From Psilocybe cubensis (taxonomy: Eukaryota), in assembly GCA_017499595.2 (NCBI GenBank), contig CM039003.1:2728001-2792000 (forward strand): a stretch of 64,000 bases of DNA. Reading direction: 5' to 3'. Positions within the stretch are counted from its first letter, which is position 1; each line of letters begins with the position of its first letter. Of the stretch, positions 218 through 63,757 are shown one piece after another. The position numbers and the translations under genes are program-made. Below the pieces are notes generated by a model. The model had not been told where the DNA came from and did no database searches. It saw nothing but the letters and a program-made list of their open reading frames with translations.

Positions 218-6798
<6,581 letters not shown>

Positions 6799-19936: not shown

Positions 19937-20643
19937 GTGTCCCAGATCAGACCCAACATATTCTAATACGCAATAATGGACCAAGTAGGAATCAGTATAT
20001 AATCCTAAAGACGCTACTCGATCTTCAAGTACATAGCATGCATTTTCCCTTTGTCATCTTGGATTTTGCAATTTTCATTCATCAGCTTTCAAGTACTATC
20101 ATACTAATAATTTGCTTTGAACTTAATGCTTGATATTTAATTCTGTTTTGAAAAACCTTTGTCAGATTGGAGGTTTAAATTCAAACCCAAAGCTTGAGGC
20201 TCGGATGATCATTTGCGGAAGTTTAAGAGGATTATTGGAGAATACTCGAGAGAAACTCGAGGTGAGAAAAATAAGAGAATTCTTTACTATCCAATTTGAT
20301 ACTGTTGAAATTTTCTTTGAAGTCTGATTTCCAACTTGTTTCCAACATCTCGAGGCTTGAACTGTCGTCGATGAGTACCGCTGTGACTCGGAACTTGAAG
20401 TGACTCAAAATAGTCCAACTCAAAAACGCCTGCCCTAAGGTCAGATCACGAGGTCAGTCTTCGAAGTACGGAGCGCGCGCCGCATGCATAGAGTTGGTTC
20501 GTGGAAATAACTAATTTAACACGATATATTTGCGATATCTCAAACCATTCCTTGCCAATAGACCTTAGGTGGACGGACAACATAGTTTGCAGCGAACCAA
20601 ACATCAAGCAGTACCGTATTCTGGGCGGAACACTGTGGGATTC

Positions 20644-38313: not shown

Positions 38314-40610
38314 TTAGAATATGTTGGGTCTGATCTGGGACACCAAAGATGAAGACCCGGAAGAAAGGTATGGCGTATCATTGGAATGCTTCTGTCTCTT
38401 CCTTGGTTGGCGCGAGGGAGACCCATCCAAAACAGAACTAAATGCGGAGTGAACGGGATGCTTTTTAGCATTTGCGGTCTTTAACAGTTCGAGGTAGTCG
38501 TGCCAACCGAGATCACTGTTTGGCCAATCCTTGTTGAGGGACTCCTTTAAAGTTGATTCCAAAAGTTGATAAAGCTGTACTCCTAACTCGCTGGTTTTGC
38601 GGTCAAAGATTTCGTGAGCCTGTTCGGAAGTATATTGTTGGTTTACCATAAGCTGTTTGACGCATTTGCGCAACTCCAAAAGATGGCAACGGTATGTATA
38701 AACAATGTCTTCAAAAAGGGTATCTATGAGATCCGTTAGTGGTTCATTTTCGTTAACAACGAAGTCTCTGAAGCTAGAATGATCGGCGGTGACGAAAGAT
38801 TGTTTGCCTGCCCCGCCTGTGTTTAATTCGCCTGGTACGCCTGGGTTAACTTGGTCAAATAGATCTCCCATGGTATTTTGTAACCTTATAGGCACAATGC
38901 TGGTCTTCATGTAACGCATAGTGCAGTAAAGAAGGGCCCAAATAAACGACTCAGCATCGTCGATGCAGTAGTGAACCTTAGACGGGTCCCGGAGAAGTCC
39001 TATTGACATGAACTGCCAAGTTCCCTAGAAAAAATTCAACAGAGATAGTATCATCCGAAAATTAATACTACATCAATGCAAAGTACGTACCGCCCGAGAT
39101 TGATGCTTCTTGTCCGTGAGAGGAGTATGTGTTTCAATATTGTAGCGCGCCGCGAGGTCCCAGTCGTTCAGAACCCCGCCTGCACCATCTCTCCTCCGTA
39201 GGATATTTCCTATGCTCACATCTCGGTGTAGAATCCCACAGAGCTGGTATGCATCCTGGTGGGCTGTTGCGAGATAGGTGAGCATCAATCATGAACATAA
39301 TTGCATGCTTACCGATTACAGCGTCATGGACAGCCTCAACCAACTGCTTTGGGTTCTCGAATTCCCAAAGAGGAAGACCAACGATGTCTTCGACAAACCG
39401 AATGTGCACTCTCTTTATAATATCCTTCGTAACTCCACCTGCATTCCATTCCGCTGCGGCATAATCCTGGGTGATTGTCATGTGGCCAGCAATGTCGTCG
39501 CCGTAGAGGTATTGTGGTACATTTCGAACGCCATGTTTGTTCAAAATCTGAAGTATGTCGGTTTCCTTTTCCGTGCCTTGCGCACACGATCTCCAGGAAT
39601 CCTTCAAAAAGACAATGTCCTCCCCCTCGGGACGATTGGGGTCCCACGCCGGGTATCCTCGAGTCGCTCTTCCAGTCACCAAGTAGGGTTCTGATAAGGC
39701 TCCCCAAACATAAACTGTATGTGCCACCCCACCAGCATTTGTTGGAATATCCATTTCGAGAACCTTGACGTTATCATTTTGTGGTCGCCATTGGTTCAGC
39801 TTACTCTGTGCCAGCTTAACTTTCTCATCGTCCAGAGGCACTATTCTGACCGTTGTATCGTGCCCACGAGCTTCGTCAGTGGTTTGAGAGTGTCGCCAGA
39901 GAAATTCCAGAAGTAAATGTCCATCAATCCGATAATTAATCTGTTCAGAGACGAGCGCACCCGCACGGTCAAAACGAATAATCCGCGTGTAGGGATCACC
40001 AACATACACGACGTAGCAATGCACGCGGTGTTGAGCTGAGAGCCACTTTTTCGCATAATTGCATATCCGCCTTCGACACACCTTGTTCGCGTCGCCTCTA
40101 GCCTCGAAAGGATATTGAGACTCAGATTCCGACTGGCCTTCTGAGTCAATGGTCTTGACGGCTCTACAATCAAAAGGGTCGGCTCTTTCACGTGTGTTTC
40201 TAATGTCAAAAGCCAACTCCAGCTCCGTGTAGTCAATGTTGTTTTGAGGAACTGTTACGCTCTGTTTGTACACCACCACATCCGGCACCAAAGCCTCTGA
40301 ATCTCCGTAAGAATATTTCGACAAGTTGATCAGCTGGAACCCAGGAATAGCCTGACTCGCTATAACACGTTGAATCTTCAAACATTCCAAAGCAAAGCTA
40401 GAGTAATCAGAAATACATAGATAGAATAGATGGACTTACTAATGAATCAGACATCTCTTTCTTCTCGCCCTGTACATCCAACGCAGTGAAGTAATTATGC
40501 GCGAAATTCAGCATGGTTTTGGTCCTTAGCTCCGCTACTGGCAACAACTCCAGCATATCCTCAATAGGCATAGGGCCCACAAATCGGCCTTGAAGATCGA
40601 CCGCACCCAT
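38314..40610 (-). CDS. FunK1-type kinase copy E
   Basis: Near-identical to copy B over exons 1-3, with an intact last exon; kinase motifs present. Confidence 0.87.
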
Positions 40611-41317
40611 GAATCCCACAGTGTTCCGCCCAGAATACGGTACTGCTTGATGTTTGGTTCGCTGCAAACTGTGTTGTCCGTCCACCTAAAGTCTATTGGC
40701 AAGGAATGGTTTGAGATATCGCAAATATATCGTGTTAAATTAGTTATTTCCACGAACCAACTCTATGCATGCGGCGCACACTCCGTACTTCGAAGACTGA
40801 CCTCGTGATCTGACCTTAGGGCAGGCGTTTTGGAGTTGTACTATTGTGAGTCACTTCAAGTTCCGAGTCACAGCGGTACTCATCGACGACAGTTCAAGCC
40901 TCGAGATGTTGGAAACAAGTTGGAAATCAGACTTCAAAGAAAATTTCAACAGTATCAAACTTGATAGTAAAGAATTCTCTTATTTTTCTCACCTCGAGTT
41001 TCTCTCGAGTATTCTCCAATAATCCTCTTAAACTTCCACAAATGTTCATCCGAGCTTCAAGCTTTGGGTTTGAATTTAAACCTCCAATCTGACAAAGGTT
41101 GTTCAAAACAGAATTAAATATCAAGCATTAAGTTCAAAGCAAATTATTAGTATGATAGTACTTGAAAGCTGATGAATAAAAATTGCAAAATCCAAGATGA
41201 CAAAGGGAAAATGCATGCTATGTACTTGAAGATCGAGTAGCGTCTTTAGGATTATATACTGATTCCTACTTGGTCCATTATTGCGTATTAGAATATGTTG
41301 GCTCTGATCTGGGACAC

Positions 41318-43584
41318 CTAAGATAAAGACCCGGAAGAAAGGTATGGTGTATCATTGGAATGCTTCTGTCTCTTCCTTGGTTGGTGCAAGGGAGACCCAT
41401 CCAAAACAGAACTAAACGCGGAGTCGACGGGATGCTTTTTAGCATTTGCGGTCTTTAACAGTTCGAGGTAATCGTGCCAACCGAGATCACTGTTTGGCCA
41501 ATCCTTGTTGAGGGACTCCTTTAAAGTTGATTCCAAAAGTTGATAAAGCTGTACTCCTAACTCGCTGGTTTTGCGGTCAAAGATTTCGTGAGCCTGTTCG
41601 GAAGTATATTGTTGGTTTACCATAAGCTGTTTGACGCATTTGCGCAACTCCATAAGATGGCAACGATATGTATAAACAATGTCGTCAAAAAGGGTATCTA
41701 TGAGATCCGTTAGTGGTTCATTTTCGTTAACAACGAAGCCTTTGAAGCTAAAATGATTGCTGATGACGAAAGATAGTTTGCCTGCCCCGCCAGTGTTTAA
41801 TTCGCCTGGTAAGCCTCGGTTAACTTGGTCAAATAGATCTCCCATGGTATTTTGTAACCTTATAGGCACAATGCTGGTCTTCATGTAACGCATTGTGCAG
41901 TAAAGAAGGGCCCAAATAAAAGACTCGGCGTCGTCGATGCAGTGGTGAACCTTTGACGGGTCCTTGAGAAGTCCTATTGACATGAACTGCCACGTTCCCT
42001 GGTAATAGTACATTGTTAGCCGCAAGTCATCACCCGAGCAAATCAAGTCACTCACCGACCGAGATTGCTGCTTGAGAGGAGTATGTGTTTCAATGTTGTA
42101 GCGTGCTGCTAGGTCCCAGTCATTCAGCACTCCACCTTTACCATCTCTCCTCCGTAGGATATTTCCTAGGCTCACGTCTCTGTGTAGAATTCCGCAGAGC
42201 TGATACGCATCTTGGTGAGCTGCCGCAGGATATTTGAATGAGCATTGAATCACGAAAATTCACTCCATGCTTACCAATTATAGCATCATGTATAGCCACG
42301 ACCAACTGCCTTGGGTTCTCGAACTCCCAGAGAGGAAGACCGACAACGTCTTCAACGAATCTAATGTGCACTCTCTTTATAACGTCCTTCGCGACTCCAC
42401 CTGCATTCCATTCCGCTGCGGCATAATCCTGGGTGATTGTCATGTGGCCAGGTATGTCGTCGCCGTAGAGGTATTGTGGTACGTTTCGGACACCATGTTT
42501 GTTCAGAGTCTGAAGTATGTCGGTTTCCTTTTCCATACCTGGCGCACAAGATCTCCAGGAATCCTTCAAAAAGACAATGTCCTCCCCCTCGGGACGATTG
42601 GGGTCCCATGCCGGGTATCCTCGAGTCGCTCTTCCAGTCACCAAGTAGGGTTCTGATAAGGCTCCCCAAACATAAACTGTATGTGCCACCCCACCAGCAT
42701 TTGTTGGAATATCCATTTCGAGAACCTTCACGTTATCATTTTGTGGTCGCCATTGGTATAGCTTACTCTGTGCCAGCTTGAATTTCTCGTCGTCTAGAGG
42801 CACTATTCTGACCGTTGTATCGTGCCCACGAGCTTCGTCAGTGGTTTGAGAGTGTCGCCAGAGAAATTCCAGAAGTAAATGTCCATCAATCCGATAATTA
42901 ATCTGTTCAGAGACGAGCGCACCCGCACGGTCAAAACGAATAATCCGCGTGTAGGGATCACCAACATACACGACGTAGCAATGCACGCGGTGTTGAGCTG
43001 AGAGCCACTTTTTTGCATAATTGCATATCCGCCTTCGACACACCTTGTTCGCGTTGCCTCTGGCCTCGAAAGGATATTGAGACTCGGATTCCGACTGGCT
43101 TTCTAAGCCAGTACTATCCTTGGTGGCTCTATGATCGAAAGGGTCGGCTCTATCTCGTGTGGTTCTAATGTCAAAAGCCAACTCCAGCTCCATGTAGTCG
43201 ATGCCGTTTTGCGGGACTGCTACACTCTGTCTGTACGCCACCACATCCGCCAACAAAGCCTCTGAATCTGCATAGGAATATGTCGACGAGTTGACGAGCT
43301 GAAACCCGGGAATAACTTCACTCGATATAACACATTGAATCTTCAAACCGTCCAAAGCACAGGTAGAGTAATCAGAAAGTTGTCAGAAAGACAAAGATAG
43401 TACAGGGACTTACGAATGAATCACACATCTCCTTCTTCTCTTCCTGTACATCCAACGCAGAGAAGCAATCATGCGCAAAGTCCGGTATGAATTTCGCCTT
43501 CAGATCCGTAACTGGTAACAACTTCAGCATATTTTTGATAGGCATAGGGCCTACAAATCGGCCTTCTACATCAGCAGCACCCAT
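41318..43584 (-). CDS. FunK1-type kinase copy F
   Basis: Kinase motifs HRDVSLGNIL, DWDLA, GTWQFMS; 4 exons; ATG GGT GCT GCT GAT at 43584. Confidence 0.87.
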
Positions 43585-43915
43585 TACCCGGAGTCCTCGT
43601 TTCGAGCAGAAATAGTACGAGTTAGGTTTGCTGTTTGACGCCTGGATCAATGCAAGCCTTGAAAGCGCCTCTGCCTGCCGAAGTCTTCGCAACTATTAAG
43701 GGAGAATAAGCAGGCTAATAATGCGTCGTTCTTTTTCAAACTTCCACGCATTGACCTCGTGATCGAAGTACAACTTCAGGGCAGGCTTTTTTGCCTGACA
43801 CTTGGGCGCTGAGCGCTAAACCTCAAATTTACTCCCCCGGGAGATCCTCTCCACATATCAGTCAAGTACTATGTTGCGCTTGCACTTGAGAAAATCTCAT
43901 TCGACTCCCGCGCCC

Positions 43916-43990
43916 GATAGGCATAGGGCCCCCAAATAGATTTTCAACATTGGCATTACCCATCCTGCAGTGTTTGACCCACTGGAATAT
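43916..43990 (-). pseudogene. Relict of a further FunK1 exon 1 / 5' end
   Basis: Reverse strand reads ATG GGT AAT GCC AAT GTT GAA AAT CTA TTT GGG GGC CCT ATG CCT ATC (MGNANVENLFGGPMPI). Its upstream DNA (CCCATCCTGCAGTGTTT…CCCACTGGAATAT) matches 37768-37801. Confidence 0.7.
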
Positions 43991-44138
43991 CTATCACAAA
44001 GAATTGGGGAGACCGAATGGATTACTGTGTCCGCGCGTCCGCCGGACATCCGCCGGACAGACTCACGTGACTACCTCGTCACGTCGCGTCTCAATGTACA
44101 TTGCGCGCGCTCTCGCGCGCTTTGTATATATACTCAAC

Positions 44139-44279
44139 AACCCTAAAAACTAATCCCTAACCCCTAATCCCTAACCCATAATCCCTAACCCCTAATCCCT
44201 AACCCCTACACCCAACCCTAAACTACCTAATCCCACCCCTAAACTACCTAATCTAATTAATTAATTAATCCAACCCTAA
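44139..44279 (+). repeat. Interstitial telomere-like repeat (CCCTAA variants)
   Basis: Four tandem 14-mers TAATCCCTAACCCC (44151-44206; one has a C>A change) flanked by degenerate AACCCTAA/CTACCTAA units. Confidence 0.85.
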
Positions 44280-44307
44280 GAAATAAAACAAACTGCTAAA
44301 ATATGTC

Positions 44308-44757
44308 AAGCACTGGAGTGGTGAGATTGAAACTAATAATTCCACCACTGCAGTGGTATAAGTTATGTAGACAATTTCACCACTTCAGTGGTACAAATCA
44401 TGTGCACTGTTCTAGCACTTGAGTGATATAAGATACATTCTAAATGTTACCACTCCAGTGGTGTAGAAATTATAAAAGTAGCAATAATTACTATTCTTAG
44501 CATTGTATTTATTCTATCTGACACACAACTATGACTACTGCAGTGGTGGAATACAACAAGTCAATTTCAGCACTGAAGTGGCAAACTCCAACATATTAAT
44601 TTCACCACTTCAGTGCTGATATTAACTTGCTACATTCCACCACTGAAGTGGTCATACTTACATGCTGTTCTTGATCACTGGAGTGATCAAATTTACATGT
44701 CGGATTTGACCACTTCAGTGGTGAAACTAACATGTCAATTTCACCACCGCGGTGGTC
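44308..44757. repeat. Array of 12 palindromic repeats (CACCACTnnAGTGGTG consensus) at 35-bp period with variable AT-rich spacers
   Basis: CACTnnAGTG-type cores start at 44311, 44346, 44381, 44416, 44451, then after an 85-bp step at 44536, 44571, 44606, 44641, 44676, 44711 and 44745. Confidence 0.92.
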
Positions 44758-46340
44758 ACGTGGGTCACGTGCTTTCCGCCGGACACTCCGTCCGGCGGAA
44801 ATTATGATTATATTAATCCATTCTATCTGAAGAATTGTTTGAGATGCTACAAATGTATCAGGTTAAAATAAGTCTTGGCAGATAAGAGCGCGCCTCAAGA
44901 TTGTTCTAAACTAACCCTGAACGTGTACCTTGCTTTGTAGACTAACCTCAGGTGTTATTGCATTTGACTGTTGACATAGGGCATCCACAGTAGCACTCAT
45001 CGATGTCGGATAAGATATATATCATATTCAAGCCAAATCTAACCATATATAGATCTGATAATAAATGATTCTCTTGTTTACCTTACTCCCAAATCCTTAT
45101 CTGCCAAAGCCAATAACTTACCCATGGCTTTATGCCAGTTTCCAGTTTTCACCGAACGCGTCGCGTTGCGTCAATTTAGTGGAGTACCAAAAAAGAATAC
45201 AATCAAGCAGGCTTAGCTGTTTAAACTACCAAAAACTTGATCAAGCTGAATAATTTGCATTGTATGTTATACGCATTTACGAATAACAAATCCATTGTCT
45301 ACCCGAGTTAGGTTATATACAGATGAGGGCCGTCAAGTTACAATTAGTAACTGCACTGCTGAAAATGGCGGACTTTGTGCAAATTGTCTTCAATGACTGA
45401 CTCAAGGAGCCAAAATTTCTGCTACTGCTGTAGCTGGCAACGTCAGCTTTACTAAAGCTGTAGTGTTTGGGGACAGCAAATATTTAATGAATATTCACAT
45501 AGCAGCTGCCAATCTGCTGTATTCACTCGTGAAGCTCAGCTGAAAACGCTCAACGAAAAGTGCAACGACATCAATCCCCAGTCAGTCCGAGTTTATATTG
45601 TTACGAAAACTATGGAACTCGATTTTATTAATCGACACCAGATTTGCCCTACCAGTTAAAGTAACCCCAAAATCGCGACCAAGTTGCATTTTGAAGTACC
45701 GCTATTCGGAAGCCGGCAAAGCTAGCCCCCACGCAGGGTTCACTAATACACGGCTTCGTCGGTCGCCTTGCAATCTTTGGGTTTGATCTTTCCGCTCAGG
45801 GGCATTATCCGCCGCTTAAACTGACTTTACACGCTGTTTTCACACCACAAGTTGCAATTGCCATACAGTTCCGGAACCGCTGCCTGACTATGATATTTTC
45901 CTCCGCCCAGACCCCGCTCACCACCTTTGATAGTCAACGTTTAGTTGAAAATGAGCACTGAGTTGTACAATTTCACTACTTTTCAATGGGTACAATGTTA
46001 CTTACCAAGATCTCAGATATAAATTTTTTCAAGATGGAACTTACATCTTTGGTGTTTGCAGCGATTCCGTGCCAGAAGGGGTGTCACGGGGTCCTTCTCC
46101 CAGGAAAATTTGATCCACGATTCCATGTGCTCACACTGCCAACAACAATGGAGATCAAGTTGCAGCATTGGACCATCTTATATTTGTACCCTCTCCGCTC
46201 CATGAAAGTTTGTGGGAAGGGGAACATTCGGACGCGGCTTTGACTCATCCCTTTACGCGTCAAAAGCAGACGGAAATTCAAACTTTTCACTAATCTTCAA
46301 GCAATCGACAACCAGAATTCTCGTATATCCGACTGCAATC

Positions 46341-47587
46341 ATGATCTCGATCTTTGTCAACCAGGCCGGAGACGGTGTTGGGGGTACACAACTTCAATTT
46401 TACGAGGCTGGCGACGCGTGAGTGTAGCAGATACTCTGTACGTATTGATAGAGTCTTTAACATTCTCTAGCTTTTGGAAGGACCTACGATATATACCCTT
46501 GCTTCTAACCGGAATTTTCTCCTTCTCCCAGTTGACGCACGCTGTGTGCAGCCGTTTCAAGTACGGAAGGAGACCAAACGAGGCAGCCGCGTCAACGGAG
46601 GAGCGTAGGGGATTTCTTGCAAGGTGGCGCTGGCACATTCATTTACATGGAGGATATGTAATCTATGCGTATATGGTTGCTCGTTTGGTGGGTTCGGTCG
46701 GGTTGCTGTATATTTTCTTTACTACCGCCATTGGCGACTGCGAGAAGGCAACTGGGAACAATGGGTGGACGTTTTCTCCGTTATGTGTTCAGACAGCTCT
46801 GACCATTGCACATGTAAGTCGTTAACAAGATCATCTCTCACTCCACGTTTTCTTATCCTGTCGTAGGCCTACGCGACCTTATTAGCCGTAACGACCTTCT
46901 CCCTGAATTTCAGGCCATTAGCTCCAGCTAGATTCCATGTCACCATTCTCTGTTCCATTCTTGCAATATACGCTTACCGCGATATCTGGCCCCTGGCAAA
47001 CTATGGCTCAGTTCCAAAAGATCAAGCGGAAGGGAATATCCTCTGGGTTAAGATTGCGCTTCTTGTCGTCACAGGAGTGATCATTCCTTTGTTCATACCC
47101 CATCCATATGTTCCAGTGGACCCTAAGGTACGTTCCCATCAGATTTTGGCGCGTCAAGGTTCAAACTTCTTTTTAGAATCCTTCTCCTGTTCCCAACCCC
47201 GAGCAAACTGCTTCATGGATCTCAGCATTAACATATACATACGCGGACCCTATTATCATTTTGGCAAACAAGGTCGCTCATCTTCGACACGACCAGTTGC
47301 CACCGCTATCCGATTACGACTTTGCTCAGTATCTTTCGGAAAGCGCTGCCAAGGTACATTTGAACCCACATATTAGTTATGAATATGGCATAGTATGTCG
47401 ACCCTTTCGCTGGAGCAAAACGTCGCCATTTGTTTTTTGGCTTGTTAAGCTTTTTCCGTGAGTTTGAGGCAAATTTCTCCAAAACCTTTCAGTGAACTCT
47501 TATGCACGAATGTGAATAGGAAGAGAATATATAATTATATCTCTCAGTATTGTATTTCACGGGTTAATGAGTTTTGTTGCCCCTCAA
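46341..47587 (+). pseudogene. 5'-only fragment of an ABCC transporter (paralog of gene 2), copy 1
   Basis: Exons MISIFVNQ…, DLRYIPLLL…YMVARLVGS, YRDIWPLANYG…[46 protein letters not shown] and RRHLFFGL. Homology stops after FVAP; no NBD follows. Confidence 0.85.
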
Positions 47588-47809
47588 GTAAGCGTTAAAA
47601 GTTTGATTGTTTTCATCGCTCTCATTATCTGGAAACCCGTCAATTCGGTACCAATTCTTCTGGGTCTTATGTTGTCCACGAGCGCTTGTCTCGCTTGCTA
47701 GTTTTTCTGGCGAGTTTTGACTCGGTAGAGCGTGTTTAGATGATGAAATCTAATTATATCTCAAAAAAACAGCGTAGTCCATACAACACAACACCTTTCT
47801 TTTATCGTA

Positions 47810-50800
47810 CAAGCAGAGGTTAGCCCCGCCCGAAGGCCAAGCAGGGGCATAACCGGTCTATCTACTGATACAAAGACTTACCTCCAGGCTGTCATTCGTG
47901 ATATCCTGTAACAAAATGTGAATCAACGCGCATGAACAAGGTAAAACACTCACAAGGTGGTGGGTGCTTCGTGGGAATGGGCTCGCGGTCTGCGCAGATG
48001 TTGGGGAAGTGGTCGGGTATTCCGTGCACGGGCCATGGACGCGTCGACACGTATGCACAAGTCCTGGCCGTCAGCCCAGGCAATATCTGCGAGGCAACAC
48101 CATGAGACCGTAAGCACGGCGGGTTGACACAAAGACGGGGGCTTCCCTTGTGTCGTCAACAAGTTCCACGTACTTTGCGTCATTGCGCAAAGTGGACTAC
48201 GTGGGGTGCACCCTCTTCTCCATCAACAAGGCTTCTCTTCTCGGAATGCCGTTGCAGCAGAGTGCACGGGCCGTCGACTTGCACTACGTATCATCTGAAA
48301 CTGCTGTTAGCATCCACTACATTTAATGTAAGAATATAATACGTACTTTTTAGACAAATTCTCTGCCACCGGACGGCGATCTCTCAAACAACCTGCCCAT
48401 GCCGCCGGATTTCCATATGTTGTGTCGTCGTCCTGGCGTCGAGTTCCCTGTGTCTAACGCCTAACCCTTGGATCGACAGTGGTATGGAGTCCGTACAAGG
48501 GACGTTCATTCGGGCGACACAACTTCGTGATGTGGGCGGCTCCTGAACTGGGTGATGACACAGAGCGACCACAGGACTTTGACAAGTCGCGTCGATACGT
48601 GTTCGCTGGTCGGGGGACGTCGATACATAGCGTCAGGCCGACGCATGAGTCCTGCTTGCCATCGAGTGACACTCTTCATCCCATCAAGGCGCCGACGTGT
48701 CAGGGCAAGGGTATCACGTCACAACACAAACGCGTATGCAGCTCGATGGATGTCGATAACGAGCACAGATTCCGGCCGCCGGATTTTGATACGTTGCGTC
48801 AGAGCCAAATGGGACGCGTGCGCGGGTCGGGGGACGTCGATACATAGCGTCAGGCCGACGCATGAGTCCTGCTTGCCATGGGATCGTGGATTGACATTCT
48901 TCATCCCATTACAGCAGCGACAGAGACCCCAGCCGCCAGATTTCGACACATTGCGTCAGGGAAAGACGAGGGGGTATGGTGTCACGGAAACAACGCGCAT
49001 GCAGCTCGATGGATGTCGATAACGTGCACAAATCCCGGACGCCGGATTTCGATACGTTGCGTCAGAGCAAAATGGGAAACGTGCGCGGGTCGGGTCGGCG
49101 GACGTCGATATATCGTGTCAGGACAGGTATGGCGGGGAATATGAGGTAATTCCACTAGGAAGCAGATTTCGATATGGTGTGTTGGGGCAAAATGAGACGC
49201 GTGCACGGAACGGGGGACGTTGATACATGGTGTCAGACCAACGGATGAGTCGCGACGTGTAGGTGAGTTGCTTTGAGGCGATCATGCAGTACCCTGGTCG
49301 GCGGACGTTGATATATCGTGTCAGGGGTATCCGAGGTGATTCTACTAGATAACATCAAATAAAGTACGGTCAGGGGTGTTAGGGAAATTTTAAAAAAGAC
49401 TTGTAACATACCTGAGGTGTATAGAGTCAATCTTCAAGGTATTATGACCGATGTCTGTGAAAAAAGCTACAATAAAGTCAAGATATAATTGAGTAACACA
49501 TAGACAAGGACATACCAGAGACTTATTAGACTCTGCGGAAGCGCAAAAACACGCTCTCGGCCTTAATCCCAATCGCAGATCTCGAAATGACACGAGGGGA
49601 GCCTATGGAGAAGTCAGGAATGTTGGAGAAGAGAGGGAGGGAGGGCTTACAGAGGCGGGATGAGTTCGAATGAAAGGCAAAAGCATGGAGATGGTCGATT
49701 CCTGGATTCGTTTTTCAGTTCTTTGTTTGGCAGGGTCACGATGTGCAAACATACCAAACAGGACACAAGTTGTCGTCGTCGGACTTGCAGCTTGCGGATG
49801 GCCACAAAGACGCCCAGCATAACGGGCATTATCTGAAAAAAGGTATGTTCCTTTACTCCTCCTTATATACCTTTTCTCTGCCAAGTAATTACATGATTTG
49901 TCGCGTTTCATTCAACAATCTTTGTTGATTCAAGGTACACATTCGGTGGTTATGGAGGTATGTTGTATTCTACTCCGGCTGAGCAGTATACGTCCGTGAC
50001 GTTATCGGTTTCTCTGCAGCCTAACCCGTTCGCCAAGTCTACGCCGGCATATCCTCCCTGAATCGTTTGGAGTGAACATCCGTGTTTCCTGGACGTTTCA
50101 CAACCTTCGCTCTCGCATTCCAGATCCCAATCTCATGTCTTTGACCCTCCTGCATCTACACATGCAGAAATACACTCGGAGGTAAGACTCCATTTTTTTT
50201 TCATTAGCTCCGGTGGAGGAAACCAGTACCTCAATCCAATTGATCGACTGACGACTTCCTCACAATAGATTTCTCAACAGGTCTGTACTTTTACCTCTAT
50301 TCGAGTCTTTTGGTGCGCTCAAACAATGTTGCATTTACAGTTAAATTCTCTTTCTATGGGTACTCATAGCTTGCCGTCCCATTGCACCCCATTCCACTGA
50401 ATACCGACAAGAATTAAACCAGTGAGCGGCGTCAATAAATCAGGCCCATTACATACTTACATTCAACTAATTTTTTGATAGGTTTGCCGATTCCCCGAGC
50501 ATACCAAATCATGTTCTGCTCGTCCCTGAACTCCGCTTTTTTCACCCACTGCCACGTCTCTCCTTCTTCCCTCACCATTGTTTAGGCCGCCTACTCCCCC
50601 TCTTCAAGATACACTAGGTGAGCTCGCGTGTTCAATACGATTGAAAGATACTCATGAATCTTGTGCTCATTACAGTCACGGAGACTTGTTCTTGTCGTCC
50701 AGCAGAGGCTCGTCGCCGTTGACGTGACTGTGCACGTATTTCTCGTGTGCCCTCGCCCATGCAGACTCAATCTAACACGCACAGGGATATAACTACACTG

Positions 50801-53138
50801 AGGTCATATTTCCAAGGTCTGTGTACGCTCTCTCTTCATCACTTGCTAAATTAATCACCATCTTTGTTAGGACGCCATCCCCCAGGAGCTTGAGCTGCAA
50901 TAACGCGATATTTGGTGAGCATTGTCACCTTTTCATTTAGACTTCGTTAACATGACACACTTTGTATATTTTAGTGAATACATTACATCCAGAGATCGAC
51001 AATATACCCGCGTTTATTGTTATTTAGGTGGTTGTGGGAACAAGAGGGGGCGATGAGATCGACTTGTGGAGGTGAGTATTTGTTCCGTTACTTCCGAATC
51101 CAATATTGATATCCTCGCGAAGGGAGTGCTGTTTAACCGTGTAGGTAAGTCTGTCATTCTCAGAGTGATGTAATGATTTTTAACCACCGTGCCAACATCT
51201 CTAGATCTCAGTTCCACATTCCTTCGTCCCCCACGTAATCCGCTATCTCCCACTTTGAATGCTTATTACATCTCCTCGCCTATCTAATCGTGTGGATAAG
51301 TCTGCATTTTCAGAGTGATGTAACAATTTCTACTGCCCGCGCCAAAATCTCCAGATCTCCGGGCCAGTGTTTCTACATGCCTCCGTCCCCTCGTAATCCT
51401 CTACATCCATTTTAAATGTTCTCAGCAACTCGGCACTGTGGAGATACGACAGGTGTAATGCGAGTGAGGTCAGAAATTCAGCTAGCATTGATTCAAGGAT
51501 ACAAACTTGCAATTTAACATAGAATACTCGCTCGTATACTTGTCGTTCTTGCCTTGATTAAGCTGGACTTTTCCTGAGTCTGGGGAAGCAGCTTTTGAGT
51601 TGAATCAGCAGCTTCAAAACAATCTGTGGCCATGTTATGTTGAAAAACATCCATGTTACCCGCCAATATTGTACTTTATTCCGCATTATTGTAGTCAAAA
51701 CCTATCGTACATCGATGTATAAACTAGCTACTAGTATGATAGACACATATACATAGAAATCACGTGCAGACATCGATAAAAGTCCAAAAATTCTAATTTA
51801 ACCAAGTTCTCCTCGAGTCCCAATGTATTCATTCACTAGTGTGTTCGCAAGAAGAGCATATAAGATTAGCCACGGAGACCCTGTAACAGAGTTATACCGT
51901 AGTTTCAAACGCACCTAAACATGATACTTCGCTCCAATAATGCTGTGAGCCGAAATAAAAGTAGGCACCACGTACATCTCCTCCTCCCCCAAATCACGAA
52001 ATTACACGATTGCAAACGGTTTGCTCGCATCTACCTGGCATTCAAGCATTGCATAACGGCACCGGGTACCTCCGAAGGCAAGATGTAGAGAAGATCGATG
52101 CAAGTCAATCGAAGTTGAACATGTATCAAAACATTACATTCCATTTAGACGCACCTGATCACAAAACGAGAAAATCCGGGTCTTCCATGAAGATCCTGAA
52201 TAAAATGAAATTATACATTGGAGGAGGTTATGTGAGATAAGATAAAAAGGGATTTCACACGGCATCCAGATGAAAATTGGGACTGTCATTTGTTAAGCGC
52301 CCAAAACGACTCCAAGACGGTACTCTCATATATTTAACACATAGCGTCCTCTATTTCCCCACCAATCAGTGACAAAGCAGTACATTAGGAGTGGACTATG
52401 GATACACACACGATATACAGAGCTACAAGTCAGCTCCATGAAGATTGCGAAGGGAATGACGAGAATTCACGGATGTATGTCATCCGGTCTACTCCTCCAG
52501 CTCCAATTCCGCGTTTCTAGCGTAAAAACACGGTTTCCTCGCATCTCGGGAGAACATCACGTCATGCTGTCATCAATAGACACATGCCGTGAACGTTTGT
52601 ACGAGATTGACGGAGACATTTTGAATGCGAGAATTTGTTGAATTGAAGATACGAAGGGTTACATACCTTTCATTTCGCCTCGATTTTGAGCCTGAACGGC
52701 AAATAGACGTTGGATTGAGTGTCCAGGACGCCTTCCAAGTCCAATGTAACAAAGAGAATGAGTCTAGTACAAGAATTCAAAATTTTTTGAATACTCGCCA
52801 TAATGATTTTCATTGTCCTCCAACTCGTATTTTTCCAAATTCACTGTAATTGCGCATGCATGTGAGCTTAGTATAGCACATGGTAGTAATACTTACCCAT
52901 TCTATCACGATTACAGCCCACAGACAAACGTTGGACTCGACAACGTACTCAAAATGCCAAGTAACCCAGGCTTCTCCTCCTGCCCCATTTCGCCGTTTCA
53001 CGACATTCCAAACGCCGTCTCTTCTGGAACACATGTGAGTATCTCTACATCTCACCATATGCATCCGGATGACGTGAGTTGGAATGCTAGGTAGATGGTT
53101 AATTAGTAGACTCGAGATTGAAGGGGAATGAAGGCACA
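47810..53138 (-). mobile_element. Putative non-autonomous Helitron-like element, 3' end at 47810 (5' end not located)
   Basis: Minus strand reads …GGTTATGCCCC TGCTTG GCC TTCG GGC GGGGCTAACC TCTG CTTG|T: a GC-rich hairpin a few nt before a CTTG end followed by T. The interior has minisatellites and spliced-looking fragments but no long ORF. Confidence 0.4.
48400..49330. repeat. Complex GC-rich minisatellite built on GA(C/T)(G/T)TCGATACRTNGCGTCAG motifs
   Basis: GGTCGGGGGACGTCGATACATAGCGTCAGGCCGACGCATGAGTCCTGCTTGCCAT at 48608 and 48825; GCTCGATGGATGTCGATAACG at 48741 and 49004; further degenerate copies. Confidence 0.8.
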
Positions 53139-54792: not shown

Positions 54793-57167
54793 ACCTTGTC
54801 ACTGGTGTACACACTATCACTCACCTAGGCCGATCAACGCGTCCAGAGCGTTCTCCCAGCAATAGCCCATCCGACTTGAAGGCACGGTAAGCGGATTGCA
54901 TCCTGTTTGTTCAGAATTCCAGTGCTGACCTCTTTACTCCTGCGTCGTGATTGGATCCCCGTAGCCCCTCGAGAGTGGTCTTGCCGGGTGAGGTACTCGC
55001 AGGCTTGCGCAGTATACCAGCAGCTCCTAAAACGCGCCGTCGCTGCGATTTGACCGCCCAACAATGCCCCCGCGTTCCTTCATGCTGCCCCGCCTTGAAA
55101 CACAAGCATGTCAAAGGCCATACAAAGTGTTAGTGTGCTCGACAACCCCATTTTGATGCTGTACTCACCAATGTCATCCATGCCCATAAAGTCACGCTAA
55201 ACACATGTTGCCGACGCGTCCTGTAACCATCTCTGCGCATCCGCCAGTGTCCTGTCCCTGCCGTGGTTCCAGCCTCAAAATACGGCGCGCTGTTCCATGT
55301 TGAAGGGCTTAGAGAGTGTGAGTAGCGCTGACAACCTTCTCTTGATGCCGTACTCACCGATGTGACCAGTGCACCCAGCATAATGCTGTAAACACCTGGC
55401 CGACGATCGATGGAGCGTGTGCAAGATCACACTCAACTGACGCTGAAAAAAGTGATTGGCCGTGACCTGGTTAGTGATTTTTAGCACATTTTGATAAGAT
55501 ACTCACCGACCGCGGTTGCCTATATGCACAGAAAGTCGCTTTGTAGGATCCATGGCTGCACTTTTGCGTGCCGCCTTGAAGAGAACGTGCTCATTTCACG
55601 TTGAAAGGGCTGAAGAAGGTTAGTGATAGGTTACCCTGATTGTGATGCGATACTTACCAGAACATGGAAGATTGCACGATGGCGGAGCTGTTGTGGGTGG
55701 TCAAGGTGGGATTGGGATGGTGAGCAAGGACAGCGGCTGACGTGGGGTGGGATGAGGGTCAAGGACAGCTGCTGGAAGACGTGTCTCGTTGATGGCATTG
55801 ACGGCGGTGTGGGGTTCTGATACTCACATTGTAGGATCGACGTTGTGACGAATGCAAGGTCTACAGTGAGCAAAAAAAGCACAACTAGAAAACATGGTAC
55901 TGACGCACCTTGTCAGCACATCCACCTTGTGACCCCCACAAGAACCGCCAACCCCTCTCAATGTCGACAGCCACCTTGCTCCCCGAGCACAATCTTGATG
56001 CGGCATTGTCGTGTTGGGCAGCATCCAATGTACGTGCACCAGCAGATTACATAGCAGTAGCGTGCAACTGATACTATGCAAGTGTCGACACTGTTCTGGA
56101 TGACCGGCATGTTGGATGATGCAGACCGAGAGGCGAGAGATAGGTCACTGTTCTTGATGACCGGCCAATGACACGATGGAGGGTGCAGACGGAGATGCGG
56201 GAGGGACAGGTATGTGAGTGAATTGTGATGACCATGCGCATGTTGCTTACCCTGTGCAGAACATTCCCCTCGAGTCATGGTTCTGGACAGTAACAACGAC
56301 CTTGCGAGAGTGCCGTCAGAACCCGTGCTCGAGTGGCGGCCCTTCAATCAATCCGACAGAATTTGTGGTGTATCTAGCAGTGACAACAGACCTCCAGAGT
56401 GTCGTCAGAACCCGCGCTCGAGTGTTGACCATCTTGTCAGCCCGAAAGGTGTGTGGTGGTGAGTGACCTCAACGACACGGTAAGCAGACCAAGCCCATAT
56501 ATGCGATCAATGTGACTAACGTACCTGTCCTCTTGTCAACAGTTGTGCTGATAGAATGTGGCAAGATATATGTGAGTTTGACGGGATTGTGGCGGACGCA
56601 GAATGGCAAAGCGAAGACGGATGGAATGAGGACAGAGAGCGGGAGTATGAGAAAGGCACGAGTGAGTGGAGGGATACGTGCCAGCGAGGATGACTGTTGT
56701 GCACGGCGCGATGGGAGGGACAAGCAAGACAAAGGGATGGGAGTATCAGTAGTTCACTAATACACGGCTTCGTCGGTCGCCTTGCAATCTTTGAGTTTGA
56801 TGGGCATTATCCGCCGCCTAAACTGACTTTGCATGCTGTTTTCACACCACAAGTTGCAAGAACCGCTGCCTGACTAGGGCTCACCACCTTTGATAGTGCC
56901 AGAAGGGTGTCACGGGGTCCTTCTCCCAGGAAAATTTGATCCACGATTCCATGTGCTCACACTGCCAACAACAATGGAGATCAAGTTGCAACATTGGACC
57001 ATCTTATATTTGTACCTTCTCCGCTCCATGAAAGTTTGTGGGAAGGGGAACATTCGGACGCGCTTTGACTCATCCCTTTACGCGTCAAAAGCAGACGGAA
57101 ATTCAACAACTTTTCACTAATCTTCAAGCAATCGACAACCAGAATTCTCGTATATCCGACTGCAATC

Positions 57168-58400
57168 ATGACCTTGATCTTTGTCAACCAGGCCGGAGAC
57201 GGTGGTGGGGGTACACAACTTCAATTTTACGAGGCTGGCGACGCGTGAGTGTAGCAGATACTCTGTACGTATTGATAGAGTCTTTAACATTCTCTAGCTT
57301 TTGGAAGGACCTACGATATATACCCTTGCTTCTAACCGGAATTTTCTCCTTCTCCCAGTTGACGCACGCTGTGTGCAGCCGTTTCAAGTACGGAAGGAGA
57401 CCAAATGAGGCAGCCGCGTCAACGGAGGAACTTGGGGGATTTCTTGCAAGGTGGCGCTGGCACATTCATTTACATGGAGGATATGTAATCTATGCGTATA
57501 TGGTTGCTCGTTTGGTGGGTTCGGTCGCGTTACTGTATATTTTCTTTACTACCCGCCATTGCCGACTGCGAGAAGGCCGCTGGGAACAATGGGTGGACGT
57601 TTTTTCCGTTATGTGTTCAGACAGCTCTGACCATTGCACATGTAAGTCGTTAACAAGATCATCTCTCACTCCACGTTTTCTTATCCTATCGTAGGCCTAC
57701 GCGACCTTATTAGCCGTAACAACCTTCTCCCTGAATTTCAGGCCATTAGCTCCAGCCAGATTCCATGTCACCATTCTCTGTTCCATTCTTGCAATATACG
57801 CTTACCGCGATATCTGGCCCCTGGCAAACTATGGCTCAGTTCCAAAAGATCAAGCGGAAGGGAATATCCTCTGGGTTAAGATTGCGCTTCTTGTCGTCAC
57901 AGGAGTGATCATTCCTTTGTTCATACCCCATCCATATGTTCCAGTGGACCCTAAGGTACGTTCCCATCAGATTTTGGCGCGTCAAGGTTCAAACTTCTTT
58001 TTAGAATCCTTCTCCTGTTCCCAACCCCGAGCAAACTGCTTCATGGATCTCAGCATTAACATATACATACGCGGACCCTATTATCATTTTGGCAAACAAG
58101 GTCGCTCATCTTCGACACGACCAGTTGCCACCGCTATCCGATTACGACTTTGCTCAGTATCTTTCGGAAAGCGCTGCCAAGGTATGGTCTTACCATTTGA
58201 ACCCACATATTAGTTATGAATATGGCATAGTATGTCGACCCTTTCGCTGGAGCAAAACGTCGCCATTTGTTTTTTGGCTTGTTAAGCTTTTTCCGTGAGT
58301 TTGAGGCAAATCCTTTCAGTGAACTCTTATAGGAAGAGAATATATAATTATATCTCTCAGTATTGTATTTCACGGGTTAATGAGTTTTGTTGCCCCTCAA
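57168..58400 (+). pseudogene. 5'-only ABCC transporter fragment, copy 2, frameshifted
   Basis: Near-identical to 46341-47587. An extra C at ~57553 (ACTACCCGCC vs ACTACCGCC) shifts the frame, and one intron is shortened to ~38 nt. Confidence 0.85.
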
Positions 58401-58622
58401 GTAAGCGTTAAAAGTTTGATTGTTTTCATCGCTCTCATTATCTGGAAACCCGTCAATTCGGTACCAATTCTTCTGGGTCTTATGTTGTCCACGAGCGCTT
58501 GTCTCGCTTGCTAGTTTTTCTGGCGAGTTTTGACTCGGTAGAGCGTGTTTAGATGATGAAATCTAATTATATCTCAAAAAAACAGCGTAGTCCATACAAC
58601 ACAACACCTTTCATTTATCGTA

Positions 58623-61600
58623 CAAGCAGAGGTTAGCCCCGCCCGAAGGCCAAGCAGGGGCGTAACCGGTCTATCTACTGGTACAAAGACTTACCTCCAG
58701 GCTGTCATTCAGCGACGTGAGTGATATCCTGTAACAAAATGTGAATCAACGCGCATGAACAAGGTAAAACACTCACAAGGTAGTGGGTGCTTCGTGGGAA
58801 CGGGCTCGCGGTCTGCGCAGATGTTGGGGAAGTGGTCGGGTATGCCGTGCACGGGCCATGGACGCGTCGACACGTATGCACAAGTCCTGGCCGTCAGCCC
58901 AGGCAATATCTGCGAGCAACACCATGAGACCGTAAGCACGGCGGGTTGACACAAAGACGGGGGCTTCTCTTGTGTCGCCAACAAGTTCCACGTACTTTGC
59001 GTCATTGCAAAGTGGACTACGTGTCACCTACAATTCCTGTGAGCATATAGAACATAATGTAACAATGAGATACGTACCTTTTAGACACACACTCTTCCAG
59101 CAGACGGCAATACGTCGTGTTGGGGTGCACCCTCTTCTCCATCAACAAGGCTTCTCTTCTCGGAATGCCGTTGCAGCAGAGTGCACGGGCCGTCGACTTG
59201 AACTACATGTCATCTGAAACTGCTGTCAGCATACAGCACACTGAATGTAAGAATATAATACCTACTTTTTAGACATGCATCGTGTCTGGGTGTACCCTGC
59301 CCCACTCTACTCCACCCATTGCGCCGGATTCCCATGTGTGGCGCCCTTGCGTCGGGTTCTGTGTATTTGCGTGTTGAATCCAACACCTAACCCTTGGATC
59401 GACATTCCGACGACACAACTTTGTGACGTGGGACAAGGTGAGCAACTCCTGGACTAGGTGGCGGCGTAGAGCGACTGCCGGATTTTGACAAGTCGCGTCG
59501 AGACACATGCGCAGGTCGGGGGACGTCGATACATAGCGTCAGGCCAATGGATGAGTACTGCTCCATGGGATTGTGGAGTGACACTCTTCATCCCATCCGA
59601 CCACGTAGACCCCAGCCACCGGATTTCGATACATTGTGTCAGGGAAAAATGAGGGGGTATGGCGTCACAGCACAAACGCGTATGCAGCTTGATGGATGTC
59701 GATAACGAGCACAGATTCCGGCCGCCGGATTTCGATACGTTGCGTCAGAGCCAAATGGGACGCGTGCGCGGGTCGGGGGACGCCAATACATAGTGTCACC
59801 TATGAATCCCGACGTATATGTGAGTTTGAGCAGGTCGGGGGACGTCGATACATAGCGTCAGCGACATATGTGTGAGTAGTTGGGAGGCGATAGGCCAGTC
59901 CAATGGTTTTCCTTGTTCAAGAACGCGGAACCCTGGTCGGCGGACGTCGATATGTTGCGTCAGGACATGTATCGCGGGGAATACGAGGTAATTCCACTAG
60001 AAAGCATCAAATAGCATACGGTCAGGGGTGTTAGGTGAAAAAAAGACTTGAAGCATACCTGAGGTTCATAGAGTCAATCTTCAACATATTATGACCGATT
60101 TTTGTGCAAGAAACTATGATAAAGTCAGGATATAATTGAGCAACAGGTAGACATAAACGTACCAGAGACTTATTAGACTCTGCGGAAGCGCAAAAATGCG
60201 CGCTCGGCCTTAATCCCAGTCGCAGAACTTGGAATGACATGAGGAGAGTCTGTGGATAGGTCAGGAAGGTGGGAGAAAAGCGAGAGGGAGGACTTACAGA
60301 GGCGGGATGAGTTCGAATGAAAGGCAAAAGCATGGAGATGGTCGAGTCCTGGATTAGTTTTTCAGTTCTTTGTTTGGCAGGGTCACAGTGTGCAAACATA
60401 CCAAACAGGACACAAGTTGTCATCGTCGGACTTGCAGCTTGCGGATGGCCACAAAGACGCCCAGCATAACGGGCATTATCTGAACAAAGGTATGTTCCTT
60501 TACTCCTCCTTATATACCTTTTTTCTGCCAAGTAATTACATGATTTGTTAGCTTTTGTTGACGCGTCGAGCTCGCGCGTTTCATTCAACAATCTTTGTTG
60601 ATTCAAGGTACACATTCGGTGGTTATGGAGGTATGTTGTATTCTACTCCGGCTGAGCAGTATATCTCCGTGACGTTATCGGATACAGTGCAGCCTATGCT
60701 ATTCGCAGAGTTTACTCCGAAAATCCACAGCTTGAATCATTCACCGCGAGCATCTTTTCTTCCTGACGTTTCAGTTCAAATCTCAAATCCCAGATCCCAA
60801 TATCGACTCCAAAGCATTCTCCCTGCAGTAGAAATACTCTTGGAGGTATGTATATATATTTTTTCATTAGCTCCGGGAGCAACATCAAGGCAACCATTAC
60901 CGCAATTGCAATTGCTCGACTGACGACTTGCTCACAACAGGTCTCTTAACAGGTCTGTCCTTTTTCCTCTACTCAGGCCACTATGTACGCTCAGTAAATA
61001 CTGCAATCAAAGGTCAATCTTCTCTCCATATGTGGTAGAACACCGTCCCATTGCATCTCAATACTTGAAAAACCAGTTTGAACCGGTGAGCAGCGCCAAT
61101 GAATCAGGGCCGTTACATACATTCATTCTAATTTCTGATAGGTTTGCCGATTCCCCGAGCTTCCGAGATCATCACCCTGACCCCAGCTTTTTTTCATCCA
61201 CTGCCACGTCTCTGCCTCTCCCCAATACCCCTACCCATTCTACTACCAGGTCAGATCCTGTGATTTCGACGATTGAAAGCTACTAATCCACTTTTCTCAT
61301 TACAGCCGCAAGAGCATGGTCGTGTCGTCCAAGAGTGGCTCGTTACCGTTTAGATGATTGGCCACATATTTCTTGTCAAGTGAGTGTTCCATCATGCAAG
61401 CAGACCCAAAGGTTCATGCCGACGCGTAGCGATACTCCAGATTCAAAACACCGCTTTGTCTGTCCACTAGAAAGCCGTCGACGCATACCAGCTTTAAACA
61501 ACAGGAATACGCGCAGGAGTATACAATTTCCAACTCCAACAACTTGCTCGCTGATTCCAAGGTCCGTGAGCTGCCTCTTTTTGTGATTTTCCAACTTGAT

Positions 61601-63757
61601 ATCTATCTTTGATAGAACGTCACCCCCCTGAAATTTAGAATTTGATGACGCAATACCAGTTGAGTGTGTTCTCCACCGCTGTTATGGTACAGTCGCTGTA
61701 ATTGTTCCATTTCAGTGAAATCATTACATCTTGGGATCGACCGTCTTTAGGTGGCTGTGGGAACAACATGGACATTGAACGCGAGGAGAAGCCGATGAGA
61801 TTGACCCGCACAAAGTGAGTATTGTTGCGTTACTGGAAAATCCGCATCAGTTTACTTGTCATATCTCTTCGTTTAAGCGGTGCTACTACTTAGGCCGCCA
61901 TTATTACCCGTGTGAGTAAGTCCCCCGCTCTCAGAGTGATGTAACCGCTCCAAATGCCACTCAAATCTCAAGATCTCCGTGCCAGCGTTTACTCGTGCCT
62001 CAATCACTCCGTAACTCGCCATCTCCCGTTCTGAATGCTTGATTTGTCGTCTCGGCAACTCGTCACTGTGGGGACACGTCAAACATAATGACAGTGAGCT
62101 CAGAAATCAAGTTAGCATCGATTCGAGGATATAAACCTACGGTTCAACATAGAATTATTAGCCTTTCATTTTTGACTGTAGCCTTGACGTATGATACCGT
62201 ACTTGACTACAAGAACTCGTACAGTAGTTCTGAGTCGAATTTTTTGACACAACTTGCGGCTATGCGCACTCGAGTAACAAACATATTATTACCTCATTAT
62301 TGTACAATATCCTGGGTTTGCGCTCAAAAAACATAGTAAAACCTAGATACCAATGTAATACACATATGGAATCCTCCAAACAGTCCAACAGATATCGATG
62401 AAAATGTGAATTCTCTAAAAATGGACATGTTTGCCTCAAGTCCCGCCTGACCCATTCGCTAGTTTATTCGCAAAAAAGCATTTCAGATAGACTCCGAGGA
62501 CCCTATAGAGGTAATATATTGTTGGTTCAAACGCACCTGACAATAATACAGCGCCCCATTCATGCTGTGAGCCGAGATAAAAGTGGCACCACATACATCT
62601 CCTCCTCCCCCAAATCACAAAATTACATGACTGCAAACGTTTGCTGCATCTACCCAGCATTCAAACGTTACATAAAGGTACCCGGGACATCCGAAGTCAA
62701 GATGTAAAGAAGCTTGATGAACGTTAATTGAAGTTGAACATGTATCAAAGTGATACATCTGTTTTAGACGTACCTGGGCACTAAACGAACAAATCCGGGT
62801 CCGCGTTGGAGATTCTGGATAAAATCAAGTTACAGTTTGGAAGGATATATGCAAGATAAGATAAATAAACTACTCACACAACATCCAAATGAAAATTGAG
62901 ACTGACATTCGTTAAGCGCCCAAACCGTCTCCGAGACGGTAATCTCGTATATTTCATTCATAGCGACTCTATTTCCTATGAATTCAGTCAGAAAACGATA
63001 CATTGTGAAGGGGTACAGGCTATAGACATGATCTGCAGAGCTACAGCCTTGCTCCATGAATTTTGCAAAGAGGATGACGAGAACAAGGGGATGCCATGTC
63101 ATCCAGCCTTGTCCTCCAGCTCCAAATCCGCGTTTCTAGCGTAAAAAAACGACTTCCTTGCATCTCGGGCGAGCATCACGTCATGCTGTCATCGGTAGAC
63201 ACATGCCGTGAACGTTTGTACGAGATTGGCGGAGACATTTTGAATGCGAGAATTTGTTGAATTGAAGATACGAAGGGTTACATACCTTTCATTTCGCCTC
63301 GATTTTGAGCCTGAACGGCAAATAGACGTTGGATTGAGTGTTCAGGACGCCTTCCAAGTCCAATGTAGCAAAGAGAATGAGTCTAGTACAAGAATTCAAA
63401 ATTTTTTGAATACTCGCCATAATGATTTTCATTGTCCTCCAACTCGTATTTTTCCAAATTCACTGTAATTGCGCATGCATGTGAGCTTAGTATAGCACAT
63501 GGTAGTAATACTTACCCATTCTATCACGATTACAGCCCACAGACAAACGTTGGACTCGACAACGTACTCGAAATGCCAAGTAACCCAGGCTTCTCCTCCT
63601 GCCCCATTTCGCCGTTTCACGACATTCCAAACGCCGTCTCTTCTGGAACACATGTGAGTATCTCTACATCTCACCATATGCATCCGGATGACGTGAGTTG
63701 GAATGCTAGGTAGATGGTTAATTAGTAGACTCGAGATTGAAGGGGAATGAAGGCACA
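58623..63757 (-). mobile_element. Putative Helitron-like element, second copy, 3' end at 58623
   Basis: Same hairpin + CTTG|T end as at 47810 (plus strand TACAAGCAGAGGTTAGCCCCGCCCGAAGGCCAAGCAGGGGCGTAACC). Confidence 0.4.
59320..59990. repeat. Second copy of the GACGTCGATAC minisatellite, with different unit order and number
   Basis: GGTCGGGGGACGTCGATACATAGCGTCAG at ~59514 and ~59833; CCGGATTTCGATACGTTGCGTCAG at ~59725; others degenerate. Confidence 0.78.

Follow-up and report, generated by a model that had tools for sequence, protein, structure and literature searches.

A one-sided row of phased palindromes in a TIR transposon insertion of a fungal genome

We analysed a stretch of 64,000 nucleotides (the window), and all positions given here are those of this stretch. 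Around the element described below, 11 ORF pieces matched the Pkinase_fungal domain, nine of them above the cut-off, and F-box and AIM3/BBC1 domains were also present among the ORFs of the window. The best match of the AIM3/BBC1 ORF was a Psilocybe cubensis protein with 92% identity, and the next matches had 55–63%. The fungal host assumed in the original prediction was borne out by these kinase domains and this protein match, judged by which the DNA is that of a Psilocybe-like agaric. No cas-like or transposase domains were found in the 30 ORF translations of the window that were scanned.

The fungal-kinase (FunK1) paralogs formed a 5.3-kb inverted segmental duplication (17509–22762 and 38491–43742) with 91.5% identity, and further FunK1 copies of 2–2.6 kb, with identities of 83–89%, flanked the AIM3/BBC1 gene on both sides. 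The transposon described below lies ~270 bp outside the right arm of this inverted duplication. To its right, a direct segmental duplication (45738–53138 and 56752–63757) was arranged in blocks, with 96% identity over 2.1 kb and 77–81% elsewhere, and its left border at 45738 coincided with loose contig ends.

The transposon lies between genes; the closest kinase ORF ends at 43382, ~630 bp away. Contigs of four public runs (X1, X4, X8, and X10) were compared with positions 43000–46000 of the window. The element, its target duplication, and the parts outside the palindrome array are given below, each with its evidence in brackets.

44009..44829, plus strand: the whole element of ~821 bp, very probably a non-autonomous TIR element (depth step, loose contig ends, empty allele, no ORF or Pfam match)
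43999..44006, no strand: left 8-bp target-site duplication AAGAATTG (sequence; single copy in an X8 contig)
44830..44837, no strand: right copy of the 8-bp target-site duplication AAGAATTG (sequence and contigs)
44009..44024, plus strand: left terminal inverted repeat, a 16-mer ending in GAATGGATTA (inverted-repeat search, exact 10-mer search, end alignment)
44814..44829, minus strand: right terminal inverted repeat (inverted-repeat search, exact 10-mer search, end alignment)
44038..44059, plus strand: subterminal motif TCCGCCGGACA in two tandem copies (repeat searches)
44773..44801, no strand: inverted pair of TCCGSCGGA with a 12-bp stem, the right-end counterpart of 44038–44059 (sequence, motif search, end alignment)
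44064..44075, minus strand: subterminal GTCACGTG box with a half-site-like TACC (mirror image of the right-end box and of the outer arm in array unit 12)
44754..44771, plus strand: GGTCACGTG box, twice in tandem and sharing bases with the outer arm of array unit 12 (repeat and motif searches)
44094..44129, no strand: G+C-rich palindrome (16-nt arms, 81% complementary)
44135..44270, plus strand: degenerate telomere-like repeats (CCCTAA type, units of 7, 14, and 21 bp) with a TAAT run after them (repeat searches)

Two G at 44007–44008 stand between the left target duplication and 44009, and the exact left terminus as well as the length of the target duplication (8 bp, perhaps 7) rest on one insertion. 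Exact matches to GAATGGATTA were found only at 44015 (plus strand) and 44814 (minus strand), in opposite orientations. The two ends mirrored each other over ~80 bp, sharing the terminal 16-mer, TCCGSCGGA twice, and GTCACGTG, whose boxes stand at 44064–44071 and 44754–44771. When the left 82 nt were globally aligned with the reverse complement of the right 82 nt, the score was 61, compared to 20.4 ± 4.7 in 300 shuffles (maximum 38.5). The outer half-site of array unit 12, at the right end, matched 44066–44075 at the left end at 9 of 10 positions, and this outer arm belongs to the end homology. Between the ends, the telomere-like part (44135–44251) varied in length among copies, with joints that skipped 59, 69, and 37 nt. 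The longest ATG ORF within 44009–44829 had 50 aa, and the two longest stop-to-stop frames gave no Pfam match.

Outside any copy of the element, a tandem GTCACGTG pair was observed at 7236–7253, just before a TATA-like sequence. This pair may be a host promoter motif that is shared or mimicked by the element.

The contigs of the public runs showed that the element is present in many places. Summed contig depth, which is no copy number and was taken only as "multi-copy", was 155–326 (X1), 210–1650 (X4), and 163–559 (X8) within 44010–44817, and 16.5–23.3, 51.6–121.3, and 14–19.1, respectively, in the adjacent flanks. Depth inside the element was 4–40 times that of the flanks, changed in steps at the borders, and dropped back after 44829. 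Loose contig ends accumulated at 44009 on the left (3, 2, and 1 contigs in X1, X4, and X10) and at 44829 on the right (4, 4, 4, and 1 contigs in X1, X4, X8, and X10), and the agreement of their consensus was 0.53–0.72, indicating that the flanks differ. Both junctions of the copy in the window were crossed by X1 and X4 contigs with 0 differences, and the insertion is therefore present in organisms A and B. In X10 (a small share), pieces of the element were 98–100% identical, and there was no depth over most of the flanks.

In organism C, a 5373-nt X8 contig covered 43162–43995 and 44831–46000 with 5 and 8 differences, respectively, and lacked the element. This empty allele had 15 other letters in place of the element, the last of which, joined to the bases after them, form AAGAATTG once, with one substitution; we interpret this as one copy of the target with an indel of 11 nt next to it. 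We conclude that a TIR transposon has inserted here, duplicating 8 bp of its target, and that a close relative lacks this insertion. Since it is multi-copy with unlike flanks and its site is empty in the relative, the element moves or moved recently, in a cut-and-paste manner. As a non-coding mobile element, it depends on a transposase encoded elsewhere; no autonomous partner was found within the window, where the element had no other match.

Compared to 43996–44008, the empty allele had an additional ~11 letters within a few bases of the target site, which could be a separate indel or the footprint of an earlier event. Among the differences between the window and the contigs over 43000–46000, C>T and G>A dominated in X1, X4, X8, and X10; in X1, for example, C>T (46) and G>A (36) stood against T>C (22) and A>G (15) among 172 places. 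This excess could reflect a deamination-type bias in repeated DNA, namely the kinase paralogs and the element copies.

More than half of the ~821-bp element is occupied by a palindrome array, which had been predicted as 12 dyads with a 35-bp period. Direct reading agreed with the prediction in its layout: 12 short dyads with the consensus ACCACTnnAGTGGT lie at 44308–44757 in blocks of five and seven, separated by one 85-bp step. The array has three parts.

44308..44463, no strand: array block 1, units 1–5 (direct reading, repeat search, chance test)
44464..44532, no strand: interruption of the array, the 85-bp step (gap-free in a 90%-identical copy)
44533..44759, no strand: array block 2, units 6–12 (direct reading, repeat search, chance test)

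By direct reading and register alignment, the dyad cores start at 44310, 44345, 44380, 44415, and 44450 in block 1 and at 44535, 44570, 44605, 44640, 44675, 44710, and 44744 in block 2. The interval between cores is exactly 35 bp in 9 of 11 cases, one interval is the 85-bp step, and the last is 34 bp. Judged by eye, the interruption may contain one decayed unit. With up to one mismatch allowed, CCACTNNAGTGG matched the 64-kb window at 10 places, of which nine fell within the array and the tenth at 12410; shuffled sequence gave 1.74 ± 1.38, and none of 100 shuffles reached 10. Units 4, 10, and 12 differ from CCACTNNAGTGG at two positions each and are therefore outside the nine array matches. 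Tandem Repeats Finder did not report the array, because its whole units are too diverged.

When the units were placed in register, their consensus was AATTTcACCACTgcAGTGGTgAAAtT, and the spacer after it had a centre resembling ACATGT. Each 35-bp unit thus has two dyad centres ~17.5 bp apart, ACCACTnnAGTGGT and the ACATGT-like one, and as a consequence long imperfect inverted repeats also exist between units. Read as 7+2+7 dyads, the units had 4–7 of 7 positions paired, and the six innermost symmetric positions were paired in 12, 12, 12, 11, 8, and 11 of the 12 units. Overall, 72.7% of cells were paired, compared to 31–53% when the partner was slid by one to three columns, and the dyad symmetry is real. 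The central dinucleotides of units 1–12 varied, being GG, GC, TC, TG, CC, GC, GA, TC, GA, GG, TC, and GC.

The prediction had also taken symmetric changes on both arms of units 10 and 12 as compensatory. These changes are present, but a covariation test on the aligned units did not exceed chance: 433 of 500 shuffles paired as well or better, and four cells were changed on both arms, compared to 3.9 ± 1.6 in shuffles. We therefore regard the symmetric changes of units 10 and 12 as anecdotes and not as evidence of base pairing.

The core was far more constant than the remainder of the unit, as had been proposed. Its 12 columns matched the consensus at 133 of 144 places (92%), and the other 23 columns at 155 of 276 (56%; Fisher p = 7e-16). 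The spacers, too, were related to each other. For 10 of the 11 spacers, the one running into the 85-bp step being left out, the sum of column maxima was 128 of 210, compared to 97.7 ± 3.9 in shuffled spacers, and 0 of 2000 shuffles were as high. The spacers thus descend from one ancestral unit, as predicted, and the array is a diverged tandem repeat, indicating that the spacers were not acquired. Against the rest of the window, the spacers gave only chance matches of 8–11 nt (best E 0.14).

The divergence between units is older than the transposon family, because copies 90–93% identical to that in the window share the same units and the 85-bp interruption with 0–2 gaps. One X1 contig with 90% identity spanned 44348–44691, including the 85-bp step, with 34 other letters and 0 gaps, and contigs with 90–93% identity carried the same units over 44319–44578 with 2 gaps. 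A private change of the window copy at 44536 breaks the dyad of unit 6; in the other copies, the base that restores the dyad accounted for 250 of 269, 1055 of 1133, and 564 of 575 depth units. The number of units differed between copies, with joints that skipped 69 nt (~two units) at 44655>44725 and at 44726>44796, and 43 nt at 44565>44609.

Taken together, the array is very probably the internal tandem-repeat region of a ~821-bp non-coding class II (TIR) transposon of the MITE type. The longer element with the same ends that the original prediction had suggested looking for was found, but it had no coding capacity. Beyond that prediction, the array proved to be only a part of the 821-bp element, which also carries telomere-like repeats and mirrored end motifs. 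Because the array lies within a multi-copy, insertion-polymorphic TIR transposon, the predicted link of the array to a transposase is plausible.

Four features by which non-autonomous TIR transposons are recognised were observed, namely inverted ends, a target duplication, same-bordered copies at different loci, and the lack of a transposase gene. We are highly confident that the element is a mobile, insertion-polymorphic, non-autonomous TIR transposon, which can be called MITE-like. Similar to MITEs and other non-autonomous TIR elements, it is short and non-coding, has inverted ends and a target duplication, and is multi-copy and insertion-polymorphic, although its 821 bp are at or above the usual MITE size and make the name borderline. 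Known subterminal motifs are usually 6–12 bp long, irregularly spaced, and found at both ends. The element resembles MITEs and hAT elements in that short motifs are reiterated inside the ends and that the two ends are asymmetric; unlike them, it has a phased 450-bp row of 12 palindromic units on one side only, which makes up more than half of its length. Emigrant/Lemi1 is an example of a MITE-type system with repeated subterminal motifs (PMC1636448), and the transposases of hAT elements such as Herves, Ac, Tol2, and Tag1 are described as binding short repeated subterminal motifs that are often asymmetric between the ends (PMC3143072).

By the length of the target duplication alone, an assignment to the hAT superfamily or to KDZ/Zisupton-like elements is plausible, and both are plausible in mushrooms. 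Many hAT ends start with CAG, and the hAT terminal consensus is YARNG. The right end of the element (CAGAT) and its left end (GAGAC, or GGGAG with the extra G) fit YARNG in part, and unlike in hAT elements, the homology between the ends extends, with interruptions, over ~80 bp. An 8-bp target duplication is given as usual for hAT elements (PMC12730594), but here the 8-bp repeat was observed at one insertion with two extra G at the left, and Zisupton fits the same length. The same source attributes 8-bp target duplications and TIRs to Zisupton (PMC12730594), and KDZ elements are known from mushrooms, e.g., Coprinopsis and Laccaria (PMC11343200). The element agrees with KDZ/Zisupton in the length of its target duplication, but known KDZ elements are large and coding.

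Other classes were considered and rejected. Helitrons have no TIRs and no target duplication, start with 5'-TC, end with CTRR-3', and insert between A and T; the present element has TIRs and a duplication, with the ends GAGA... and ...TCTG. In Foldback elements, sub-repeats build both long inverted ends. The element is similar to Foldback and satellite-bearing transposons in that tandem sub-repeats form much of its length and that it folds back strongly as a single strand, but its array motif is on one side, and the other side is an unrelated telomere-like repeat. A position-weight scan for the core half-site in the left 290 bp yielded a best score of 5.5 bits, which ranked 262nd in the window. 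A Mutator-like target duplication of 9–10 bp was dismissed, since the insertion is young and in other respects unchanged, yet a duplication of that length would require two mismatches.

Searches for relatives of the element covered metagenomes, viral contigs, Rfam, and the literature. A scan of metagenomes with a three-unit pattern gave 31 loci, all of them unrelated and, with the exception of L020, near-perfect 35-bp tandem repeats. A blastn comparison of the element with these 31 loci yielded only 45 nt at 73% identity in L004, at two positions, both with E 0.35. At 4074–4153 of L020, a CACTAGAGTG motif recurred with a 35-bp period and differing spacers, with no similarity to the element. 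In viral contigs, the end pattern had 0 matches, and the two-dyad pattern had one (L032), which was an unrelated, perfect 34-bp triple repeat in a phage-like contig. A literature search found no description of the element, although the family may already be catalogued, for example in Repbase or Dfam.

As for the role of the array, our tentative preference is that repeated copies of the innermost end motif make up the cores and are retained because the transposase that mobilises the element, or an accessory protein, binds there. The 12-bp core appears to have remained 92% constant as the other positions of the unit decayed to 56%, and its outermost half-site would be a part of the end homology of both ends; the core is therefore probably the reiterated innermost end motif. 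By analogy with the subterminal repeats of hAT, CACTA, and pogo-type elements, the core would bind the transposase or an accessory protein in dimeric form. In a selfish non-coding element, mobilisability would be the only trait that selection can hold while the spacers decayed. Moreover, the core is G+C-richer than the spacers, and with C>T and G>A dominating, mutation bias should erode it faster. Three points speak against such a role. Reiteration of the core motif is confined to one side; TCCGSCGGA and GTCACGTG, which are mirrored at both ends, are at least equally good candidates for transposase sites; and 35 bp correspond to 3.3 helical turns, so that neighbouring sites would not lie on one face of the DNA.

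The main rival to the binding-site reading is that the array is passive cargo, i.e., a decaying minisatellite that goes back to the tandem duplication, inside the transposon, of a 35-bp unit with a palindrome and has no role in transposition, and we consider this a real possibility. The similarity among the cores would then result, without selection, from palindrome-seeded conversion or slippage or from hairpin-templated repair. Many non-autonomous elements are described as holding internal micro- or minisatellites (e.g., PMC8449440), and the element itself contains a second, unrelated tract, the telomere-like one, whose length varies between copies. The variable number of units (the joints of 69, 69, and 43 nt), the one-sided position of the array, and a covariation not beyond that of shuffles also agree with passive cargo. 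However, neutral decay predicts even divergence, and the observed divergence was 8% in the core and 44% elsewhere, with the G+C-richer core expected to erode faster under the C>T and G>A bias. A period of exactly 35 bp in 9 of 11 intervals and the retention of the array in divergent copies with 0–2 gaps likewise argue against it.

A bolder form of the binding-site reading, which we find doubtful, sees the 12 palindromes as a loading platform acting in cis, in which dimer sites that stem from the innermost end motif are lined up on one side at a strict spacing of 35 bp. If this were true, a large oligomer of the family transposase or of a host protein would be assembled on one end of the element, and the row would be more extreme and more regular than the subterminal repeats of any characterised eukaryotic transposon. 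Such a platform could account for the way in which an element without coding capacity competes for transposase.

It is improbable that the array is maintained as a nucleic-acid structure, that is, as serial or long hairpins formed either by a transcript (a precursor of small RNAs that silence the family) or by DNA that is single-stranded while the element transposes or replicates. A 470-nt stretch had a predicted DNA folding energy of -96.1 kcal/mol, compared to -49.1 ± 5.0 kcal/mol for shuffled sequences (z -9.35), and a predicted RNA folding energy of -178.9, compared to -109.0 ± 6.3 (z -11.1). But any palindrome array folds well, and the predicted minimum consisted of long-range pairing between units and not of serial hairpins. 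No Rfam family reached its threshold, and the only matches were sub-threshold ones to miRNA hairpins or precursors, the best being mir-6012 with 38 bits against a gathering score of 59; matches of this sort would be expected of any array of palindromes. The changes on both arms of units 10 and 12 would suit a structure, but covariation stayed within the range of shuffles.

Still less probable is a use by the host, in which host factors would bind to the dyads, to the paired GTCACGTG boxes, or to the telomere-like repeats, and the insertions would act as portable regulatory modules in promoters. The intergenic position near the kinase ORF ending at 43382 and the similar tandem GTCACGTG pair before the TATA-like box at 7236–7253 point in this direction. 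However, the site is empty in a relative whose flanks are 99.3–99.4% identical, indicating that the copy is not needed at this locus, and the dyad core was not enriched elsewhere in the window, where its best matches outside the array were scattered single half-sites.

CRISPR arrays have near-identical repeats of ~23–55 bp and unrelated, acquired spacers. The likeness to them noted in the original prediction is superficial, consisting of a short palindromic repeat that alternates with a differing spacer at a fixed period, and we give practically no credence to an adaptive array of the CRISPR kind or to any other new locus standing on its own, since the array differs in its host (a eukaryotic genome with a fungal kinase family and a best protein match in Psilocybe cubensis), in repeat length (a core of 12–16 bp), in the origin of its spacers (19–21 bp and mutually homologous), in copy number (the whole array, "spacers" included, is copied at many loci), and in its neighbours (no cas-like domain among the ORF translations).

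An apparent CRISPR-like system in a fungus is thereby explained away as a mobile element of a fairly ordinary sort, in which the row of palindromes is unusually regular. A row so long, strictly phased, and one-sided is unusual, yet it is no new kind of system. For annotation, this means that such arrays should be masked as transposon sequence. The analysis defines, with its borders and target duplication, a recently mobile family of DNA transposons in what its sequence suggests is a Psilocybe-like agaric, and the polymorphism between filled and empty sites is usable as a marker. The family is a natural test case for how repeated motifs are kept up in non-autonomous elements.
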